DNA from: Promethearchaeota archaeon
GTDB taxonomy: Archaea; Asgardarchaeota; Lokiarchaeia; Sigyniarchaeales; SOKP01
Assembly (NCBI GenBank): GCA_016840165.1
Contig: JAEOSU010000032.1
Location: 32,001 to 96,000 of the forward strand
Direction: 5' to 3'
Length of the DNA: 64,000 bases
The position numbers and the translations under genes are program-made. The stretch's first letter is position 1. Every line of letters begins with the position of its first letter. Of this stretch, positions 3,966-38,967 are shown piece after piece. A model generated the notes under the pieces. The model made no database searches. It was given only the letters and a program-made list of their open reading frames with translations, and was not told the DNA's origin.

Positions 3966-4038
3966 ATGTGTATTATGGGGCTTCCATTACTTCAACTGAG
4001 TTCTCATTTTTTTAACTCAGTATCATAAGTTAACACAT
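3966..4038 (-). promoter_or_regulatory. SECIS element (eukaryote-like) in the 3' UTR of the hdrA-mvhD selenoprotein operon
   Basis: Minus strand reads ATGA-T-ACTGAGTT-AAAAAAATGAG-AACTCAGT-T-GA-A (core 4026-3991; perfect 8-bp stem, A-rich loop). A lower stem ATGTGT/ACACAT closes it. It starts 6 nt after the mvhD stop. Confidence 0.85.
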
Positions 4039-4044
4039 TTTTAT

Positions 4045-4509
4045 TTAAGCCTTAGCTTTCGCTTTGGCTTTTTCTTTTTTTTGTGTGTCGCTTTTTGGAC
4101 GGAGTGGACTTGGACCTAACTTCCGTATTTCCTCATCGAATTCCGTTGCTACTTTTTGAAACTTCGCACCTTCCGCAGAACTGCAGAATTCCATCCTCAA
4201 TCTTTTGGGATTAACTCCAATGGTTTTAGCAATTTTTTCTAGATATTCTACTTGTCGATAAGCAAAATAATTTCCGTCTTCATAATCGCATTCACCAGGG
4301 TATCAACCAACTACTAGAACGCCATCGGCTCCTCTTCCAAAAGCTCTCATTATTAAGTCCGCTCCAACTCTACCAGTACAGGGAACTAATACAGTACGTA
4401 ATGACGTCGGATACTGTGCTCGAATTGTTCCTGCCATATCTGCGCCACCATATCCTCATTTCAAACACAAAAATGCTAATATCTTTATCTTTTTTTCATT
4501 CTCTGCCAT
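4045..4509 (-). CDS. mvhD: MvhD/VhuD hydrogenase iron-sulfur subunit, selenoprotein (Sec18, Sec69), 154 aa
   Basis: MAENEKKIKILAFLCLK-U-GYGGADMAG...VPCTGRV...GADGVLVVG-U-YPGECDYEDGN...FCSSAEG. In-frame TGA at 4456-4458 and 4303-4305 align with Cys of the paralog at 14564-15049 (CCNWCSY; GCHIGDCHY). SD GGTGA upstream, TAA stop, SECIS downstream. Confidence 0.93.
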
Positions 4510-4523
4510 TTAATCACCCTTGT

Positions 4524-6500
4524 TTACTCCTCGAGTGGTAATAATTCATCAATATAAGCCATATATTGAATGTCTTTATAATGTGCTAGTTCTATTGCTT
4601 TCGAAGGACAAGTAGCCGCACATATTCCGCAACCTCTGCAGCTAATAAGATCAACTACAATTAATCCCTCTTCGTTGACTGAAATAGCACTATAAGGACA
4701 AGCTTCAATACATTTGTAGCATTTAGCGCAACGTTCGTCTATTGGTTTAGCACGGATTAATTCCATGGTATATTCCTCATGTTTCATAGGAATTCCAGCA
4801 GTCGAAGCAGCTCCTTTAGCCTGACTAACAGCAAGATCTATCGACTTCTGGCCTTGGCATGAACCTGCTAAATAGACTCCTGGAACTTTTGTATTAATAG
4901 GGTCGAGTCTGGCATGCACTTCTTTTAAGAAACCATCAGAAGTCTTTTCGATATTCATTACCGAAGCAATCTGATTGGTTCCTTGAGATGGTAGTGATGC
5001 TGAAGACAAGATTACCATATCAAATTCCATCTGCACTACGGAGTCGGTTCCTACTGGTTCAAGCTGTACTTTCAGATTCTTAGTTATTGGATCCTCTTCA
5101 ATTTTACCAATTAAACCCTTAATGAAGATAATCCCTGCATCTCTTGCTCGTCGATAGTACTCTTCATACATTTTCCCGCCACAGCGCATGTCTATATAGC
5201 TTACTACTATCTCGGAATCGGGGTATTCAGACATTATCAGTTTTGAATTTTTTACGGAAAGATTGCAACAGACGACACTACAATACTCATTTGTGTTTAA
5301 ATCTCGAGATCCTACGCAGTTGATAAATAAAACTCTTTTTGGACGAGTTCTATCAGAAGGTCTTTTCAAGTGACCGAAAGTTGGACCATTAGGAGCAAGT
5401 ATTCGTTCTAATTGGATTTGAGTGATTACATTATCATAAGTACCATATCCATAATCATCTCCTTGATAGAGGTCCCAACCAGTAGCTACGATTATTGTTC
5501 CTATTTCTAATTCTACAATTTCGTCTTGCTGACTAAAATCTATCGCATCAGTATCACATGCATCTACACAAGCAAAACATTCGACACAAGAGTTTCTCTC
5601 AATATTAGAGATTGCTGGAACCGCCTGAGCGAATGCTATATCAATACATTTTCGAGCGGACAGATTTTCATCAAAGTAATTCGGGACATAGATAGGACAC
5701 ATTTCCGTACAACTGCCACAACCGGTGCATAGTTTTTCATTGACAAACCGTGCCTTTCGATTCACTTGCACTCGAAAATTACCAATATAGCCATCGACCT
5801 TTACCACTTCGCTATAAGACATTATTTCGATATTTTCATGCCTATCAGCTTCAAGCATGCGTGGTCCGAGAATTCAAATACTACAATCATCCGTAGGGAA
5901 TGTTCGATCAAGCTGGGACATTCTCCCTCCAATAGTAGTATTTTTTTCGACTAAATACACTTTATAGCCTGCATCACCTAAATCAATCGCAGTACTTAAA
6001 CCTGCAATGCCTCCACCTATTACTAAAGCAGTTGGATTGACTGGTACTGTTTTCGTAGGTATATCTTCTAACAGTTGGGCTCTTGAAATACCTGCCTTTA
6101 TCAGTTCGATCGCTTTTTGAGTAGCTTCATCATAAACTTCTTTCGATTGGTGTACATAACTACAGTGTTCTCTAATATTTGAAAATTCTAAATATCTTTG
6201 TGGCATCCCTGCCTCTTTTAATATTCCATGGAACACTGGTTCATGCGTTAATGGTGTTCAAGCGGCTACAACTATGCGATCAAAGCCTTTCTCTTCAATT
6301 TGTTCTTTTATGTATTCCGCTCCACCGGACGTACACATGTTGAGATATTCGTATGCATATACATTTGGCAATTTATTAATCTCTTCGACGATCTTTGGAA
6401 CATCTAAAGTTCCCGCGATGTTTATCCCTCACCGACACACAAATGTGCCAACAACTGGCAATTTATCGTTTTTATCTTCCTTGGTCTGTTTTTCAGACAA
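4524..6500 (-). CDS. hdrA: heterodisulfide reductase subunit A, selenoprotein (Sec24, Sec81, Sec209), 658 aa
   Basis: One continuous frame from TTG at 6500 (GGTG SD) joins ORF-track pieces 5874-6236 and 4524-5858. TGA at 6429-6431 (FVCR-U-GINIAG), 6258-6260 (VAA-U-TPLTHE) and 5874-5876 (TDDCSI-U-ILGP) all correspond to Cys in the paralog at 15083-18169. FAD motif GGGIAG and ferredoxin motifs are present. Confidence 0.93.
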
Positions 6501-6681
6501 GTTTTACACCTTTTTAAATATATCCTCCTAATTTTTTAAGAGTGTAAGTTACAAAATCTCTATTTACTAGTGTCTAATAGATTGTATTTATGATATTGTT
6601 AATAGTTCTTATTTTTTAAGTTCAATTGTTATTAAATTTCATTGAGGATAAACATATTTTTACAAGAATGGAAATTTCCTT

Positions 6682-12096: not shown

Positions 12097-13452
12097 TTGG
12101 ACTTACTAAACTTTTTAAAAAAGAATGTTATTTCTGCTACTGGATGTACCGAGCCAATAGCTATAGCTTATGCTGTATCATTGGCGTATTATGCTTTATT
12201 TCAAGAAAAAATTACGAATGATGTAAATGATTCTTTCAAATTCTTTAATAAAGTACCTGAGATTAAACCTGAGAATATCGAGATGATTAACATCAAAGTA
12301 GACCAGAATATCTATAAAAATGCCTATTCTGCTATAATACCAGGAACAAATGGTTTGAAAGGAATAGAGGTTGCAGCTGCGCTAGCCTTATATCAAAATC
12401 CGAAAGCAAAATTAAATATATTTAAAAATCTAAATTTGGTTAACTTTAACAAGATTGAGCAAATTCTAAATAGTGATGTCATAAAAGTATCATATTCAGA
12501 AGATTCACTTACTGATTATTTACTAAAAATAGATATAAGTCTAAAATATAAATCAAATGATGTTCTAAAAACCTCTCAAGTAAAAATCCGTGAGACTCAT
12601 GACAATGTAGTGGAAATTAAGGTAAACGGAATAGATTTATACAAAAAAACTAATAATCAAACAAATGATAAGGAGAAAAAAAAATCATTAAATTTGAACA
12701 CAATTTTAGAAATCGTTGAAACCGCAGATAAATCCGTCTTAGATGAAGTAGATAAGGGTATTTTAATGAATATGAAAGTCGCTAATGAAGGTGGGACTAG
12801 AAGATATGGGCTTGAAATTGCTAAGAATCTTAGGTACATCTTTAATGAAGATGGATGTTCAGATTCCATTATCTCTGAAATCCGTAGTAAAGTAGCTTCT
12901 GCAGCGGATGCTAGAATGGGCGGAACTAATTTACCCGTTATGACAACTTCGGGATCGGGAAACATGGGAATCACAGCAATTATACCAGTCGTAATCATGG
13001 GAGAACGAAGGCATATATCGAGAACTAAAATTAAAAAGGCTGTGTTATTGTCTCATTTAATCACATCAATTGCGGATCAATATCTTGGTCATTTATCTGC
13101 GTTGTGTGGAGTTGCTATTAAAGCAGGATTTGGAGTTGCTGCAGCTATAACATATATGTTAGATGGCTCTCAAGCTCAAATTAGCTATGCAATCAATTTG
13201 CTAGCTGCAAACAATATCGGATTTCTATGTGATGGAGCAAAGCCGGGCTGCGCGTTAAAAGTTTCGACTGCTGCAGGTATTGCAACCGAATGTGCCCTAA
13301 TGGCGTTAAATAATCAGAAAATAAGTCATGATAATGGAATCATCTTTGAAAACCCAGATGATACCCTCAAAGGCATAGGGAATTTATGCCATTCACTTTA
13401 TCAACTAAATAAAGAAATCATAGAATTAATTGAGAAGAGTGTTATAAATTAA
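12097..13452 (+). CDS. L-cysteine desulfidase / serine dehydratase-alpha family protein (YhaM/CdsB-like)
   Basis: ATGCTEPIA, DARMGG, SGSGNMG, LSALCG and CDGAKPGCALK motifs. Confidence 0.85.
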   Translation: MDLLNFLKKNVISATGCTEPIAIAYAVSLAYYALFQEKITNDVNDSFKFFNKVPEIKPENIEMINIKVDQNIYKNAYSAIIPGTNGLKGIEVAAALALYQNPKAKLNIFKNLNLVNFNKIEQILNSDVIKVSYSEDSLTDYLLKIDISLKYKSNDVLKTSQVKIRETHDNVVEIKVNGIDLYKKTNNQTNDKEKKKSLNLNTILEIVETADKSVLDEVDKGILMNMKVANEGGTRRYGLEIAKNLRYIFNEDGCSDSIISEIRSKVASAADARMGGTNLPVMTTSGSGNMGITAIIPVVIMGERRHISRTKIKKAVLLSHLITSIADQYLGHLSALCGVAIKAGFGVAAAITYMLDGSQAQISYAINLLAANNIGFLCDGAKPGCALKVSTAAGIATECALMALNNQKISHDNGIIFENPDDTLKGIGNLCHSLYQLNKEIIELIEKSVIN

Positions 13453-15082: not shown

Positions 15083-18000
15083 CTATACTATTCCTTTTAA
15101 TTCCTCAATCATTTTTTCGATTTGCTCTTTTCGATAATGATTTTGGTCAATCGCTTCAACCGGGCATTCAGCAACGCATGCACCACACCCCTTACACACG
15201 GCTTTAATTACTCTAGCTTTTTTCATTTTCACCTTATATAACCCCATTTCTTTCTCCACGTCATAAGTTTCTAAAGCATTATAAGGACACACTTCAACAC
15301 ATCTACCGCATCCTATGCATCTTAATTCATCAATATCAGCAGTAATTCCCTCTACAATTGCCTTTCCCTTCATCAAGAGAATTAATGCCCTTGAAGCGGC
15401 GCCAAGTGCTTGACTTATTGATTCATTAAGATTTTTTGGACTCTGAGCGGTTCCACACAGGAATATTCCATCAGTGGCAAAATCAACTGGTCTTAATTTG
15501 GCATGAGCTTCAAGAAAGAAACCATTCTTATCAATTGGTACCTTTAACATTTCAGATAGTTGTTTACTATCCTCCCATGATACTATTGGAGTTGCTAACA
15601 CGAGTCTATCGACTATGAGTTCATAATATTCCCCAACAAATGAATCAAACACTTCCAATGTTATTTTTTTATCACTTTTTTTAAGAATTGGTGGTTTGTC
15701 TGGTATATATTGAATAAAATTAATCCCTTTTTGTCGTGCTTCATAATACTTTAATTCTTCTTCAAAGAAAACTCTAACATCACGATACAAAATATATACT
15801 TGGGCATTGGGATATTTTTCTTTTACGATTAAAGCATTTTTTATAGATTCGCCACAACAAGTTAGTGAACAATAAGTTCTTCCTTTTTCCTCACGAGAGC
15901 CTACACATTGGATGAATGTGATAACTTCATTCTTGTTTAACTTTTCTTTATGAAGTAAACTATCGAATTCTAAATTTGTATAAACATGATTATTTTCATT
16001 ATACGCATAATAACCATTAGGTTTAAATTCTTTCCCTCCCGTAGCTACAATGATTGTTCCGATTTTTAGGCTTCTCTCATTATTTTCTTGGTTAATAAGC
16101 GCAATAAAATTTCCTAATGAACCACTTAAATTTTGTAAGGTAGAAGAGGTAAATATTTCTATATTTGGATTAGTTTCAACCTTTTCAATCAATGGATTTA
16201 TAAAATCTTCTGAAGGATGTTTATCAAGATTTAGGCTCTTCAATTCGCGAACTAATCCTCCTAATTGCTCTTCTTTTTCAATAAGATAAACCTTGAATCC
16301 TTTTTTAGCTATTGCTAATGCGGAGGTCATACCCGCCACTCCTCCTCCAATAATTAAAGTAGATGGGGTGATCTCCACTTCAATGTCGTCTAAAGGTTCA
16401 GCGAGACGTGTTTTTGCGATGGTCATTTGTATAAGTTCTTGTGCTTTCTTTGTTGCTTTTTCTGGGTCTTTCATATGGACCCAGCTAACTAATTCTCTTA
16501 TACTTGTAAATAATACTAAGTAGGGGTTAAGTCCTGCTTTTCTACATGTGGCTTGAAATAGTGGAAGATGGGTACGAGGCGTACATGACGCGATGATTAC
16601 TCGATTCAAATCATGTTCGGTTATTGCTGCCTGTATACTATGTTGAGATTCTTCAGAACATGTATATAAGTTTCTCTCAACATAGACAACTCCGGGTATC
16701 TCCTTGATCTTGTCTGCAACTGTGGCAACATCTACTACACCAGCAATATTTGATCCACAATGGCAAACAAACACACCGATTCGTGGTGGATCGTTTGGTG
16801 ATACTATCTTTTCAGGTATTTCTTCTTTTATCTCTTCAGCTTTTATAATTGAGCTCCTTCCTGAAGCGAAGCTTGAAGCGCCACATGCTTCAGATACTGA
16901 TGTTGAAATATCTTCAGGCCCATGAGCGCATCCACATGTAAAAATCCCCGGTATACTCGTTTCTATATTATTAAAAGAAGATTTTGGTTTAATAAAGCCA
17001 TACTCATCTATTTCTATACCTAAGATTTTATTCAATTTCTCTGAATTCTTATTAGGTACAACAGCTGGAAATAAAACTACCATATTTACGGTATCAAATT
17101 TAACCTCTCCCGTTGTAATATCGGTATGTCTTATTACTAAATCGTTCGTTTCTGGATTCTCATAGATTTTATTTGGTAATCCTTTGATATAATTAACATG
17201 ATAATCATCTTTTGCTTTTTCAATAAATTCATTATGGTTTTTCCCAATAGCACGTAAATCATTATAATAAACAAGGATTTCTGTATCTGGAGAATGTTCC
17301 ATTGTCATTATTGCTTCTTTTGAAGCATACATACAACAGATTTTTGAGCAGTAAGGTTTTTCATTAAAATTACGAGAACCAACACATAAAATAAAAGCCA
17401 TTTTATGAGGATGTTTTCTATCTGTCTGGCGCACAATTTCTCCACCTGTAGGACCTGAAGCGCTCATAATTCGTTCATATTCTAAAGATGTAAATACATT
17501 TGTATATCTTCCATGACCATAATTCTCTAAGGCACTTACGTCCATTAAATCAAAACCAGTAGCAACTAGAATTGATGATACTTGAATTTCAATTTCTTCG
17601 GGTTTTTGAGAGAAATCTATTGCTTCTGCTAAACAAGCTTTCGTACATAGTTTACAAATCCCATAGTTTAAATATAAACAACTTTTTTCATCGATAAGAT
17701 ATTTTGCTGGAACAGCTTGAAGAAATGGTATATATGCGGCATGATTATCCTTTAATCCTACTTCAAATTCATTTGGAACATCTCTTACAGGACAAATTGT
17801 GGCACAATCTCCGCATCCCGTACATTTTTCTGTATCAATATAGCGTGGTTTTTTTAAAATGGTCACCTTAAACTCATCGCCATCATTAATTGGGTCAACT
17901 TTCGATACCTCTGAATAAGTATAGAGATTAATCCGCGGATGACGGGAGCACTCCACCATTTTTGGCGCTAAGATACATATCGAACAGTCTAAAGTGGGGA

Positions 18001-33898: not shown

Positions 33899-34016
33899 AT
33901 ATTTTTCAAAAAATAATGGAAACCCAATTCAAAATATTCAACACAATAAATAAGCTTTTATAGTTATTTGGGCATTATGTATTAAAACACATTCATCATA
34001 ACAAGGGTTTGATTTT

Positions 34017-34970
34017 ATGGAAATTCAATACGGAAAAATGATTCTTTATGGAATTCTGCAGGCTGTGTTGTACCTTGCGGTTCCATTAATTATAATCTAT
34101 TTCATAGAATTATACAACATTATGACTTTCAGCCAAGATTTCATTACCTACTTAATTGTTATTGGCTGTATAGGCGTTGCATTATCTATGGCAAAGCACG
34201 CATTTCCCTCTGACACTTCGGCTAATCGCATCGTTGCATTTATTGGAGCTATATATTCCGGGCTATATCTTTTCTATATCTTTGGAGGTTTTACACCTGG
34301 GGTGAGTTTGGGAACTTATTATATTGATATACCTAGCCTTCAAGTTTTGTTAGGACTACAGGTTATAGCTTGGTTATTTCTTATCTCTACTGGAATAAGT
34401 GCATTAAAATATTTAATTCAGGCTATAGAACTTCGAAAAAAGAGGGAATATGAAATTAAAGCAAAAAAAACATTTAAACTTAGTCGAGTCTTCAAAGGTT
34501 TGGGGACTCTAATGAGTCTCATTATCCTTGGTTATTTTGCCAGCATCGTTTTCAGTGGAATGAATTTAGGAATAAGTCTCGATGATCCTGCCCCTCCCGA
34601 TTATGATAATAAGGGTACTCCAAGCTTTCTTGACGATAGCCTTAATTTTACATTAACCTTTGATGTAAATAATCAAGGATTGTATGCAATTTATGATGTT
34701 GAAATCTTTTTGAATATATTTACTGAATCGACTGCTAATGATACTGCTCTTCCAGAATATACAAAAATTGGAGGATCCTCAGGATATTATTATAGTGCGT
34801 TTCATTCATTTACCCTCACACCGGATCAAAGTATAACAGCTACTATTTCTCCTATGTATATAGAAGGACTACTTACAACTAATGCAACACTGAAATTTCA
34901 AATTTCATTTTCGACGCTCTATGCTAATATCGATATTGCTGTGAATGTATCAATTTCAATACCATGGTAA
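34017..34970 (+). CDS. hypothetical membrane protein with C-terminal beta-rich extracytoplasmic domain
   Basis: About 5 TM segments followed by a Ser/Thr/Asn-rich beta domain. Confidence 0.6.
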   Translation: MEIQYGKMILYGILQAVLYLAVPLIIIYFIELYNIMTFSQDFITYLIVIGCIGVALSMAKHAFPSDTSANRIVAFIGAIYSGLYLFYIFGGFTPGVSLGTYYIDIPSLQVLLGLQVIAWLFLISTGISALKYLIQAIELRKKREYEIKAKKTFKLSRVFKGLGTLMSLIILGYFASIVFSGMNLGISLDDPAPPDYDNKGTPSFLDDSLNFTLTFDVNNQGLYAIYDVEIFLNIFTESTANDTALPEYTKIGGSSGYYYSAFHSFTLTPDQSITATISPMYIEGLLTTNATLKFQISFSTLYANIDIAVNVSISIPW

Positions 34971-35076
34971 TTAATAATTAAAGAATTTTTTTCTTTCTCT
35001 TTTATTTTCAGTACTTTTCAATAATTAATAAATTAAACACTATATCTTTAAATTCGCTTTAGATTAAGACAATATT

Positions 35077-35589
35077 ATGAATGATGAGGAACCACCACGG
35101 CCAAATGGACTTCCAACTGGATCTTCAGCCCCACTTATTGATACTAAAGATATCAACGGTAATTCATTAAATTTGAAAAAATTACTCGGAGAATACAATG
35201 GTGTGCTTATTGATTTTTTTCGGGGAAACTGGTGAAAACATTGAAAGGAACATCTTTCCTTACTCACAAAACACATAGAAGAATTTGAAAGAAAGAATGT
35301 AAAAATATTATCCATAGCTAATGACAGCCCTAGACTGCTCGCGAAATTTAAAGAAGAGAATTATTTTAAAATAGATCTTATTGCGGATAGGGGAGCAAAG
35401 ATTGCCAAAGATTATGAAGTCTATTGGTTTGCTCCCGGAGGAACAGGTAAAATGAAGGTAAAGCAAGCAATTCCAAGCAAATTTTTAATTAATGCCAAAG
35501 GAGAAATCGTCTGGATTTATATCGGTAAGGATAAAACCGATAGACCTTCTATCGAAATGATGATGGATGCAATTGATAAAAACTTATAA
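35077..35589 (+). CDS. AhpC/TSA peroxiredoxin-like selenoprotein with UxxU motif (Sec53, Sec56), 170 aa; absent from ORF track
   Basis: MNDEEPPRPNGLPTGSSAPLIDTKDINGNSLNL...VLIDFFRGNW-U-KH-U-KEHL...ILSIAND...DLIADRGAKIAKDYEV...AIPSKFLINAKGEIVWIYIGKDKTDRP. TGA at 35233-35235 and 35242-35244 replace the CxxC. TAA stop, SECIS downstream. Confidence 0.92.
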
Positions 35590-35592
35590 TAA

Positions 35593-35659
35593 TCCCATTT
35601 GAATGAATCATATATAAAAATTATAGATATATGAGGACAACCTTGTAAAAGTTATGGGA
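35593..35659 (+). promoter_or_regulatory. SECIS element (eukaryote-like) in the 3' UTR of the peroxiredoxin-like selenoprotein
   Basis: ATGA-A-TCATATAT-AAAAATTATAG-ATATATGA-G-GA-C (35603-35638), lower stem TCCCAT/ATGGGA; same geometry as the SECIS at 3966-4038. Confidence 0.85.
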
Positions 35660-35750
35660 AATACTTTTTTTTTTACTTATTAAATTATGATTAAAGTATA
35701 GGATCATTTTTACGATATGAAACTTATTTAGAATCAAAAGATTTAGTCAT

Positions 35751-37070
35751 ATGATAGAAATGTCTGATAAGGAATATGCGTGGTATGAGGATCCTAGGGT
35801 TGAGTATTTATATCTTGCAAGTAGCACAAAAAATATGCGTGGATATCATGCTCCTATAGTAAATCCAAAGATTACATTTACCGGAACTAATAGTTTCATT
35901 GATTTTGCAAATTTCATTGGAAGCTATTTTGGGCCTGATGATAAACGACTTTTAATTGTTGTGGATAAAGAATTACGACAAATCGGGGAAAGAACAGGAA
36001 ATAGATTGTCAGAGATGAAGGGATTTGAGTTTAAAATTTTTGATAATGTATTGTCCGATGCACCTAAAAATAATCTTATGGATGGAGTTAAAATATGTGA
36101 GGAATTTCAACCAAAGGCAATAATCGCAATTGGAGGAGGTTCCACTATGGATACCGCTAAAGGGATCTTCTTATTATATGAAAAACCAGAAGTGAATCTG
36201 AATAATTTAATTATCCCAAGTTATTTAGGATTAAGAAAGAAAATAGATTTATTAATAGCGATTCCTACCACATCTGGCACAGGTTCGGAAGCAACTACGA
36301 CCAGTGTAATAACCGATACAGATAGGGTACCTCCAAAAAAAACAGCCGTAACTCTCTATGAGCTCTGCCCCGATATAACAGTTTTACATTACGATTTTGT
36401 GAAAACAATGCCTCCTGAATTAACTGCGGCAACTGGTATGGATGCGTTAAGCCATGCTCTTGGAGCTTATACGTTAACCATGAGTAATATCTATACTGAT
36501 ATGCATAATCTAAAAGCTATTGAATTAATCTTAGAATATTTACCTCGAGCAGTTAAAAGAGGAGATGATATGGAAGCTAGAGAGAAAATGTTATTAGCGG
36601 CATATATTGCTGGGGTTGGATTCTCTAATGTGGTGACCAGTTTCGATCATGGCTTGGGACATTCATTTGGAGCTATTTTTCATATCCATCATGGAGCTGC
36701 AGTAGGAATATTCCTTCCTACAGCAACCGCATTTCAAGCAAAAGTTTCCAATAGGTTTATAGATATTGCCCGTTTGTTTGGAGTGGATGTAAAAGAAAAA
36801 AGGAAAGACATAATATTAAAAGAATTTTTGGAGAAACTTCGAGAATTTGTTCGCTCTTTTGGATTTCCCATATGTGTTAAGGAGCTTGAACATCCAAAAA
36901 TTAACTATGAACAATATATGCAAGAAATTGATCAAATGGTTAACTATGCATATAAAGATGTTACTAGGTTATTTTCCACGCGAAGAATTACAATACCCCA
37001 AGTGCGACGACTCTTTGAAGTTGGTTATGAGAATAAAATAGAAGATTTATTAAATTTGTATTATCATTAA
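35751..37070 (+). CDS. iron-containing alcohol dehydrogenase
   Basis: GGGSTMD, IPTTSGTGSE, GMDALSH, HGLGH, HHG. Confidence 0.9.
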   Translation: MIEMSDKEYAWYEDPRVEYLYLASSTKNMRGYHAPIVNPKITFTGTNSFIDFANFIGSYFGPDDKRLLIVVDKELRQIGERTGNRLSEMKGFEFKIFDNVLSDAPKNNLMDGVKICEEFQPKAIIAIGGGSTMDTAKGIFLLYEKPEVNLNNLIIPSYLGLRKKIDLLIAIPTTSGTGSEATTTSVITDTDRVPPKKTAVTLYELCPDITVLHYDFVKTMPPELTAATGMDALSHALGAYTLTMSNIYTDMHNLKAIELILEYLPRAVKRGDDMEAREKMLLAAYIAGVGFSNVVTSFDHGLGHSFGAIFHIHHGAAVGIFLPTATAFQAKVSNRFIDIARLFGVDVKEKRKDIILKEFLEKLREFVRSFGFPICVKELEHPKINYEQYMQEIDQMVNYAYKDVTRLFSTRRITIPQVRRLFEVGYENKIEDLLNLYYH

Positions 37071-37083
37071 AGGAGAAATTGAT

Positions 37084-38967
37084 ATGACTAACCAAAAATT
37101 GTTTGGATATAATGGAAAAATTATCTACATCAATTTAAATGAATCAAAAACCGAAGTGAGAGAATTAAGCAAGGAGATTGCTGAACTATATGTTGGAGGA
37201 GTAGGTCTATCGGCAAAATTGACTTATGATTTACTTGTTGAACAAGATTATCAAACGTTGGTAAAAAATCCCTTAGATGAAATAAATCCCCTAATATTTG
37301 CTACGGGACCGTTAACAGGAACTTCCACCCCTTCAAGTAGTAGATATTCAGTAACGGCTATTTCTCCGTTAACAGGAATATGGGGGGAATCAACTTCCGG
37401 GGGCTTTTTCCCATTATCTTTACGGAAAAGCGGTTTTGATGCGATTATTATAACTGGCAAATCAAATACTCCCGTATATATTTTATTGGAAAATCAGAAA
37501 GTTGAGATTAAAGATGCTAATTCCTTATGGACTAAAACGACTTATGATACAATTAAAAATATTCACGATGAAAATGATAATCCCAAACTCCGGATTGCAT
37601 GTATTGGAAAAGCAGGGGAAAATATGGTTAATTATGCTGCCATTATTAATGATGAGGGAAGAGCTGCTGGAAGATGTGGAATGGGTTGTGTTATGGGAAG
37701 CAAAAACCTTAAAGCAATTGCTCTCTCTGGTTCTGGAACTATTCAATATAAAGATAAAAATAGTATTGTAAAAACGTCGAAAACAGTGCTAGGGATCATA
37801 AAATCATCTTTTGGAGCACAATTTTATTCTCATTATGGTACCCTTTCTGGTATGGATATTGGAATGGTCTATGGGGATGTTCCCGGATTTTATTTCACGA
37901 AATCTGAATTTCCAGTGGAAAATATAACTGGTTTAGCATTAAAAGAACAATATCCTGTATTATCCTACGCATGTGCTGGCTGTACGATTGGATGTGGCAG
38001 AAGGACGTTCGTTGAATTAGATGGAAAGGAAATAGAAATAAATGGACCAGAATATGAAACCACAGTGGCTTTTGGCCCAATCTCAGGAATATTTACCTTC
38101 GAATCAATTATTAAAGCAAACTACTTATGTAATCAAGAAGGGATTGATACCATCTCATGTGGTGTTTCCATATCATTTCTAATCTATCTGGTGGAAAATA
38201 AGATTGCTCTAAAAGATATCTCTCAATTTTTAACGGATATTAGTATTAAAGAGATTAGATGGGGAAACGAAGATCTTGTATTAAAGCTGATAAACAAAAT
38301 AATCGAGAGAAAAGATATAGGCAAAGTATTGGCAAAAGGAACGCGGGAAATGGCAAAAACTTTAAATGTAAATCCTGAATTAGCTGCCCATGTAAAGGGT
38401 TTAGAAGTTCCATTCCATGATCCTCGGGCTAATTTAGGCCAAGCTTTGTCCTACATGACTTGTTGTGTGGGAGCAAATCATTGTAAAGGTGATTTTTATT
38501 TGGTAGACTGGGGACAAACGAGTTATATGAAAATAAAAAGAGATGATCCACTTAAAATCATTGGGAGAGAAAATTCAGTAATAAATATGCAGGATATGGC
38601 AAATATTTATGATTCGGCGGTAATCTGCTCTGTAACAAAAATTAGTGAAAAGTTTATAAGCAAGTTATTACAAGGGTCTACTGGTTTTGATTCATTAGGA
38701 AGTGTAAAGAAAGTATTATTAGCCGGAGAACGTGCCACCAATTTAAAGAGATTAATTTCATGTAAACTTGGATGTTCTCGAAAAGATGATACCCTTAAAG
38801 ATATAAACTCGAGAGCTTTGAAGACTGGAGCAACAGCCGGTATTAGTTCTAACTTAAATGATAGTTTGAAGAAATATTATGAAATTCGAAAATGGAATTG
38901 GGAAACGGGTTGGCCTACAGAAGAAAAGCTAAAAGATCTCAATATAAAGTTAAATTTCTTTACCTAA
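37084..38967 (+). CDS. aor: aldehyde:ferredoxin oxidoreductase family protein (second copy)
   Basis: SPLTG, AGRCGMGCVMGSKNLKA, CAGCTIGC, GPEYET, GIDTIS. Confidence 0.88.
   Translation: MTNQKLFGYNGKIIYINLNESKTEVRELSKEIAELYVGGVGLSAKLTYDLLVEQDYQTLVKNPLDEINPLIFATGPLTGTSTPSSSRYSVTAISPLTGIWGESTSGGFFPLSLRKSGFDAIIITGKSNTPVYILLENQKVEIKDANSLWTKTTYDTIKNIHDENDNPKLRIACIGKAGENMVNYAAIINDEGRAAGRCGMGCVMGSKNLKAIALSGSGTIQYKDKNSIVKTSKTVLGIIKSSFGAQFYSHYGTLSGMDIGMVYGDVPGFYFTKSEFPVENITGLALKEQYPVLSYACAGCTIGCGRRTFVELDGKEIEINGPEYETTVAFGPISGIFTFESIIKANYLCNQEGIDTISCGVSISFLIYLVENKIALKDISQFLTDISIKEIRWGNEDLVLKLINKIIERKDIGKVLAKGTREMAKTLNVNPELAAHVKGLEVPFHDPRANLGQALSYMTCCVGANHCKGDFYLVDWGQTSYMKIKRDDPLKIIGRENSVINMQDMANIYDSAVICSVTKISEKFISKLLQGSTGFDSLGSVKKVLLAGERATNLKRLISCKLGCSRKDDTLKDINSRALKTGATAGISSNLNDSLKKYYEIRKWNWETGWPTEEKLKDLNIKLNFFT

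Follow-up and report, generated by a model that had tools for sequence, protein, structure and literature searches.

A probable two-selenocysteine PrxL gene with a single lokiSECIS element in a Loki-type Asgard archaeon

Introduction

Two peroxiredoxin-like (Prx-like) selenoprotein genes, PrxL.1 and PrxL.2, have been described in Lokiarchaeota (Mariotti et al. 2016, PMC4989117). PrxL.2 contains one selenocysteine (Sec), PrxL.1 has Sec at both Cys positions of the redox box, and neither protein contains a further Cys (PMC4989117). Downstream of each gene lies a lokiSECIS whose stem has 9 bp and whose loop has 11 nt, and a diselenide was proposed for PrxL.1, with SelL as the analogy (PMC4989117). 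In a 2024 survey of the Asgard selenoproteome the Prx-like protein (prxL) was found in 43% of Sec-using Asgard archaea, its genes mostly carrying type I eSECIS-like elements (PMC11227280). A table in a 2026 review lists the family as [quoted passage not shown].

Here we describe a PrxL gene at 35077-35589 (+) of a 64,000-nt window, which is the whole stretch of DNA analysed. The gene would be an orthologue of Lokiarchaeota PrxL in its two-Sec, PrxL.1-type U-x-x-U form. Taken as a whole, the reading of the locus as a two-Sec PrxL, in which one lokiSECIS recodes both UGAs and the product is a diselenol/diselenide oxidoreductase, is very probable.

The reading frame and its redox box

The frame opens with the ATG at 35077 on the + strand, runs for 170 codons and closes with the TAA at 35587-35589, with a second TAA straight after it. 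Two TGA codons are its sole interruptions (35233-35235, codon 53, and 35242-35244, codon 56), and they occupy positions 1 and 2 of a redox box with the codons TGG TGA AAA CAT TGA, read F-F-R-G-N-W-U-K-H-U. With translation table 11, the ORF list for the locus has no + strand entry of at least 80 aa. Translation with Cys for TGA gives a match to Pfam AhpC-TSA (PF00578) with an E-value of 3.2e-22 and 79 bits against a cut-off of 26, over residues 15-146 and hence across both TGAs; the Redoxin match has an E-value of 9e-16. Full-length homologs, an AlphaFold2 (AF2) model and a fold match also support the coding sequence. The original prediction of a 170-codon AhpC/TSA frame with TGA at both redox-box Cys therefore agrees with the coordinates and the Pfam match, and its statement that the protein has no other Cys is matched by a count of zero Cys codons outside the box.

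A TTTAAAT at 35047-35053 (+), about 24 nt upstream of the ATG, may be an archaeal TATA box, judged by its sequence only; it would possibly give a leaderless or near-leaderless mRNA. At the other end, a T10 run at 35665-35674 (+), 6 nt 3' of the SECIS, is the likely archaeal transcription terminator of the gene, and T-rich runs also follow the SECIS elements of homologs.

The SECIS element in the 3' UTR

The 3' UTR contains a complete lokiSECIS, a eukaryote-like type I SECIS, at 35593-35659 (+), recognized by sequence, by comparison and by the published features (PMC4989117). Its core runs from 35603 to 35637 as ATGA-A-TCATATAT-AAAAATTATAG-ATATATGA-G-GA. The AUGA (35603-35606) begins 13 nt past the last base of the stop codon, as had been predicted for a SECIS-like core after the TAA, and its GA partner lies at 35636-35637. 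Between them, an 8-bp upper helix (35608-35615 with 35627-35634) carries an 11-nt apical loop, AAAAAUUAUAG (35616-35626), and a lower stem of 6 bp (35593-35598 with 35654-35659) closes the element. Every published lokiSECIS feature is present, namely the AUGA, the fixed stem, the 11-nt loop of the form AAAAA..AG and the GA; the published "9-bp stem" corresponds here to eight Watson-Crick or GU pairs plus the flanking A/G position.

An element of the form ATGA-N-8 bp-11 nt (AAAAA..AG)-8 bp-N-GA lies 1-20 nt 3' of the stop in 60 of 69 homologs, and the stem sequences of these elements differ strongly from one another. The first 70 nt past the stop of 18 same-genus homologs were aligned with plain MAFFT. 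The AUGA, the GA and the AAA of the loop are invariant columns in this alignment, 96.5% of cells in the 8-bp helix are paired, and seven of the eight pairs show a compensatory change. None of 500 shuffles reaches the observed level of pairing and slid registers give 27-65%, while RNAalifold, unprompted, recovers exactly this helix from the same alignment. Covariation thus upholds the SECIS-like core of the original prediction.

Folding of the single sequence gives a minimum free energy (MFE) structure of another shape and of no significant stability (z -1.46). Such a fold is uninformative here because the stem is AU-rich and includes non-canonical GA pairs, and the RNA support for the PrxL SECIS is consequently purely comparative. 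An Rfam scan of 34000-37000 with E-values up to 10 returned chance snoRNA and miRNA matches and no SECIS family; the Rfam SECIS models do not capture the lokiSECIS.

A strict scan for the SECIS geometry found seven sites in the 3.6-Mb host genome and one in each of three shuffled genomes, so the geometry exceeds chance. Four of the seven follow known Loki selenoprotein types (PrxL, two VhuD and one VhuU-like), two follow small Sec-containing membrane ORFs, and the remaining one (contig C58) has no convincing upstream gene.

A putative small hairpin (AACCUUG UAA AAGUU) occupies the 3' side of the element between core and lower stem, at 35639-35653 (+). Most homolog 3' UTRs have a hairpin of the form ACCYYG...RGGGU (consensus AACCYUG-NNN-RGGUU) in the same place, and a strain variant, A>G at 35650, brings back a C-G pair in it. 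The parts of the 2016 PrxL description available to us hold no mention of this hairpin (PMC4989117).

Conservation of the gene and of both UGA codons

When 121 genomes of the same archaeal order were searched in six frames, 66 proved to contain PrxL homologs, and all matches spanning the redox box have one to three in-frame TGAs, mostly one or two. Site counts and the tree described below are based on 69 complete PrxL genes extracted from the genomes of the order. All of them encode W-U-x-x-C/U: site 1 is TGA in 69/69, whereas at site 2 44 genes have TGT or TGC and 25 have TGA, and further Cys are absent from most UxxU forms. TGA or Cys is therefore held at both redox-box sites, as anticipated for orthologs of a selenoprotein.

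Could the second TGA be a recent accident? The nearest homologs, at 66-74% identity, mostly have TGT or TGC at codon 56, from which a single base change gives TGA, as would be expected if a nonsense mutation, or a sequencing or assembly error, had struck a UxxC PrxL and left a pseudogene coding for a 55-residue fragment. We regard this as very improbable. Two contigs from an independent study (X5 and X6) cover both TGAs with zero differences, and both TGAs are kept in a contig from a third study (X7), whose strain is about 96.5% identical and shows 22 differences in 629 nt. Within the SECIS core hairpin this strain has just two changes, each of them in the apical loop, and whatever else differs in its 3' UTR lies outside that hairpin. 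Both TGAs are thus real and no assembly artefact. The frame downstream of them is intact and constrained: over codons 58-170 dN is about 0.2, dS is saturated, and omega is 0.04-0.07 where computable, exact values being confined to a few pairs because dS is saturated in most. Purifying selection thus acts on the part of the gene 3' of the TGAs, and coding constraint continues past them, as the original prediction implied. In addition, the SECIS is intact, UxxU occurs in those 25 homologs across several clades, and a SECIS that recodes codon 53 should also serve a UGA nine nucleotides further on, as has been proposed for PrxL.1 and SelL (PMC4989117). By all these sequence features, PrxL appears to be a live, functional gene.

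Decoding machinery and genetic code

The original prediction of a selenoprotein called for Sec machinery in the genome, and all of its parts are present in the 105 contigs. SelD (182.7 bits, itself containing one in-frame TGA), SepSecS (371 bits), PSTK/KTI12 (133.6 bits) and EFSec/SelB (246 bits, above the curated cut-off) were found, together with a tRNA-Sec whose TCA anticodon is intact, outside the window on contig C63 (~16334-16483, -). A BLAST search with the 89-nt tRNA-Sec genes of genomes from the same genus located the tRNA gene, which has SepSecS about 230 nt away and EFSec, on the other strand, at a distance of about 5 kb, and which shows compensatory changes in two stems. Its D-arm and its T-arm each contain an insertion of about 30 nt, whereas the same-genus genes are uninterrupted. 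Owing to these insertions, neither general tool detected it: RF01852 found ordinary tRNAs only in the host genome, and aragorn, with introns on or off, reported 11-13 tRNAs and no tRNA-Sec. The published Loki tRNA-Sec has the same EFSec linkage and a 31-nt intron in the T-loop (PMC4989117), and differs from the present one in lacking the D-arm insertion.

The low G+C content of the genome (31.6%) is a trait of some recoded lineages, which raises the alternative that TGA is a general sense codon here and encodes something other than Sec. This alternative is effectively refuted. TGA ends 232 of 1496 stop-to-stop frames of at least 300 codons, and taking it as sense lifts long-ORF coverage from 78% to 85% only; TGA is otherwise a normal stop codon in this genome. 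Moreover, the in-frame TGAs fall at the redox Cys positions of PrxL, VhuD, the VhuU-like protein and SelD and are accompanied by SECIS elements, and the genome encodes the dedicated tRNA-Sec and Sec machinery just described.

On the selenoprotein reading, the PrxL mRNA would carry a single eukaryote-like lokiSECIS in its 3' UTR, and Sec-tRNA(Sec) would be made by PSTK, SepSecS and SelD. We infer that lokiSECIS, EFSec and Sec-tRNA(Sec) together recode both UGAs, 53 and 56, three codons apart, as Sec, with translation then expected to terminate at the UAA.

Protein fold and proposed function

The AF2 model of PrxL, built on a 39-homolog alignment, has a pLDDT of 92.2 and a pTM of 0.88. In the model a strand (42-47) runs into a helix (54-65), so that Sec53 caps the N-terminus of the helix and Sec56 sits in its first turn; the predicted box has the classical thioredoxin-fold CxxC geometry. 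The N-terminus, MNDEEPPRPNGLPTGSS, contains no hydrophobic segment, membrane anchor or signal, hence the protein is probably cytoplasmic.

Is PrxL a peroxidase? Its nearest sequences are PrxQ/BCP and ResA, and the best Foldseek matches in the PDB are Bcp4 (3hjp, TM 0.84), AhpE, PrxQ and ResA. The resemblance to the PrxQ/BCP and AhpE peroxiredoxins (3hjp, 2cx3, 1xxu) covers the overall fold, with TM values of 0.79-0.84, and in the phmmer alignment with the BCP 2cx3 Sec53 falls at the Prx Thr/Ser and Sec56 at the peroxidatic Cys. The main functional alternative, a selenium-dependent peroxidase in which both Sec are real, Sec56 attacks the peroxide and Sec53 resolves, would account for these matches. 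However, the Prx signature is not preserved. The P-x-x-x-T/S-x-x-C motif is absent, its place being taken by R49-G-N-W-U53-K-H-U56, where Arg49, invariant in the family, stands at the Pro position and Sec53 at the Thr/Ser. The catalytic Prx Arg is absent as well, Gln130 being aligned with the Arg of 2cx3 (K-R-A-V vs K-Q-A-I-P-S). Beside Gln130, the three-residue insert I-P-S bears an invariant Pro133, as in CxxC proteins of the ResA/TlpA type, and the 2016 description places the family as Prx-like without typical Prx features (PMC4989117). The peroxidase reading thus seems unlikely.

The absence of the Prx catalytic residues, together with the N-terminus free of hydrophobic segments, favours instead a cytoplasmic redox-box oxidoreductase that would cycle between diselenol and diselenide, a role that we consider moderately probable. 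The product would be a cytoplasmic 170-residue thioredoxin-fold protein with the box at the N-terminus of helix 1, facing the invariant Pro133. It would most likely cycle between the diselenol and an intramolecular diselenide; its role would be that of a very low-potential thiol/selenol-disulfide oxidoreductase rather than that of a canonical peroxiredoxin, the substrate, too, being putative. Both the diselenide and the oxidoreductase role are suggested by motif and fold, with CxxC proteins and SelL as the points of reference. We know of no double Sec this closely spaced that has been biochemically proven among Lokiarchaeal selenoproteins.

Neighbouring genes and other selenoprotein genes

Directly upstream of PrxL and in the same orientation lies a gene for a multi-pass membrane protein of 317 aa (34017-34970, +), which is conserved upstream of PrxL in about 18 same-genus genomes at 47-58% identity. 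It matches no Pfam family, and its Atlas cluster contains only Asgard "hypothetical proteins"; it could be a functional partner of PrxL. Directly downstream are an Fe-dependent alcohol dehydrogenase and an aldehyde:ferredoxin oxidoreductase (35751-38967, +). A function for PrxL drawn from these two enzymes was considered and rejected, as the linkage is inconsistent in relatives.

The window holds a second lokiSECIS. It lies 18 nt past a VhuD/MvhD-type gene at ~4026-4509 (-) of the window (C9:36026-36509 in contig numbering), which has two in-frame TGAs (..CLKUGYGG.. and ..VVGUYPGECDYE..), and reads ATGA-T-ACTGAGTT-AAAAAAATGAG-AACTCAGT-T-GA. The gene is of the known HdrA-VhuD type. Both SECIS-linked VhuD genes of the genome have two Sec each, and the VhuU-like gene encodes a C-terminal hydrogenase peptide. 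In the latter (..YDCULSCAAH.., C19 ~6500-6660, +) the stop TGA is at the same time the UGA of the SECIS AUGA core, an overlap also seen in the second VhuD (C79 ~12174-12600, -) and in a membrane selenoprotein (C37 ~3243, -).

The small membrane ORFs are two paralogs of 61-68 aa (C82:26158-26340, -, and C37:3273-3419, -), each followed by a lokiSECIS. They have a basic N-terminus, one TM helix, a ..GxGUGC.. motif and a hydrophobic tail, and match no Pfam or NCBIfam family. About 13 further genomes, from two genera, have similar genes with GGGU(x0-3)C and a SECIS. The stretch C30:148616-148888 (-) matches PrxL weakly (21 bits) as a thioredoxin fold and contains one in-frame TGA; from its sequence it may be another Sec-containing redoxin.

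Cys/Sec switching at site 2

For a maximum-likelihood tree of the 69 homologs U was coded as C, which keeps the site-2 trait from influencing the tree. Six changes of the UxxC/UxxU label are required on this tree, and at least five of them are forced by well-supported branches. The terminal branch of the present gene is long (0.36) and stands at the base of a well-supported clade of 52 members, 39 UxxC and 13 UxxU. It is about an even call that site 2 has flipped between Cys and Sec repeatedly, with at least five changes among the 69 and sometimes between tandem paralogs, and that the present locus is a lineage-specific U-x-x-U form within a mostly U-x-x-C subclade. Were this so, a single lokiSECIS would tolerate the gain of a second UGA with the RNA unchanged, and, should the flips be adaptive, the family could serve as a natural series for the benefit of a diselenide over a selenenylsulfide.

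Tandem PrxL paralogs occur at four loci in a sister genus, where about 230 nt separate a UxxC copy from the UxxU copy that follows it, and both have a SECIS of their own. The stop codon of many of these genes stands just 2 nt before the AUGA, so the lower stem of the SECIS must overlap the end of the coding sequence.

Comparison with known systems

The locus adds one more well-supported Asgard selenoprotein apparently missed by gene callers, and confirms that what was described in 2016 for PrxL.1 and its lokiSECIS extends to a whole order of Loki-type archaea, with one SECIS apparently serving UGA codons three codons apart. Its use lies in annotation, where the TGAs should be read through and the SECIS marked, and as a test substrate for double-Sec recoding and diselenide chemistry. 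Current understanding is unchanged by it.

Among more distant systems, the ResA/TlpA proteins (1st9, 4nmu) share with PrxL a W-C-x-x-C-type box at a helix N-terminus and the conserved Pro loop, with E-values of 2e-9 to 2e-7; they differ in having Cys where PrxL has Sec and in their N-terminal membrane anchor or signal segment, which PrxL lacks. Membership in the ResA/TlpA family was rejected on the score (NF002854, 54 bits vs a cut-off of 170) and on the missing anchor. SelL of aquatic animals resembles PrxL in its Prx-like thioredoxin fold, its U-x-x-U box, its single SECIS and the diselenide proposed for it. It differs in being eukaryotic and in using a canonical eukaryotic SECIS with SBP2. 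The top NCBIfam match to PrxL is indeed NF040769, "SelL-related redox protein", at 55.3 bits, below the cut-off of 120; PrxL was accordingly rejected as a SelL/NF040769 member and is a distant relative. The original prediction further took UxxU motifs to be rare, with SelL as the classic case and one Sec as the usual number in Sec-Prx-like proteins. The architecture is however that of PrxL.1 (PMC4989117), and 25 of the 69 homologs studied here are UxxU forms.

The closest system is Lokiarchaeota PrxL.1. Both proteins have the AhpC/TSA thioredoxin fold, U-x-x-U in place of the Prx T/SxxC and no Cys outside the box, and in both genes one lokiSECIS, with AUGA, fixed stem, 11-nt loop and GA, lies shortly past the stop. 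The hosts are likewise comparable, each a Loki-type Asgard archaeon with archaeal Sec machinery, in which tRNA-Sec and EFSec lie on opposite strands within a few kb of each other. Judged by the published description, nothing differs in kind. The present copy is at most 74% identical to the sampled homologs. The close homologs come from MAGs titled Promethearchaeota or Promethearchaeia (= Lokiarchaeota/-ia) which, taken together with the 2016 description, makes the gene a further member of the described family. The small additions made here are the switches at site 2 between Cys and Sec, at least five in number, and the finding of a UxxU copy in a mostly UxxC subclade. The two-Sec PrxL gene and its RNA signal were already described in kind in 2016 (PMC4989117), and the present gene is a further example of them, not a discovery.
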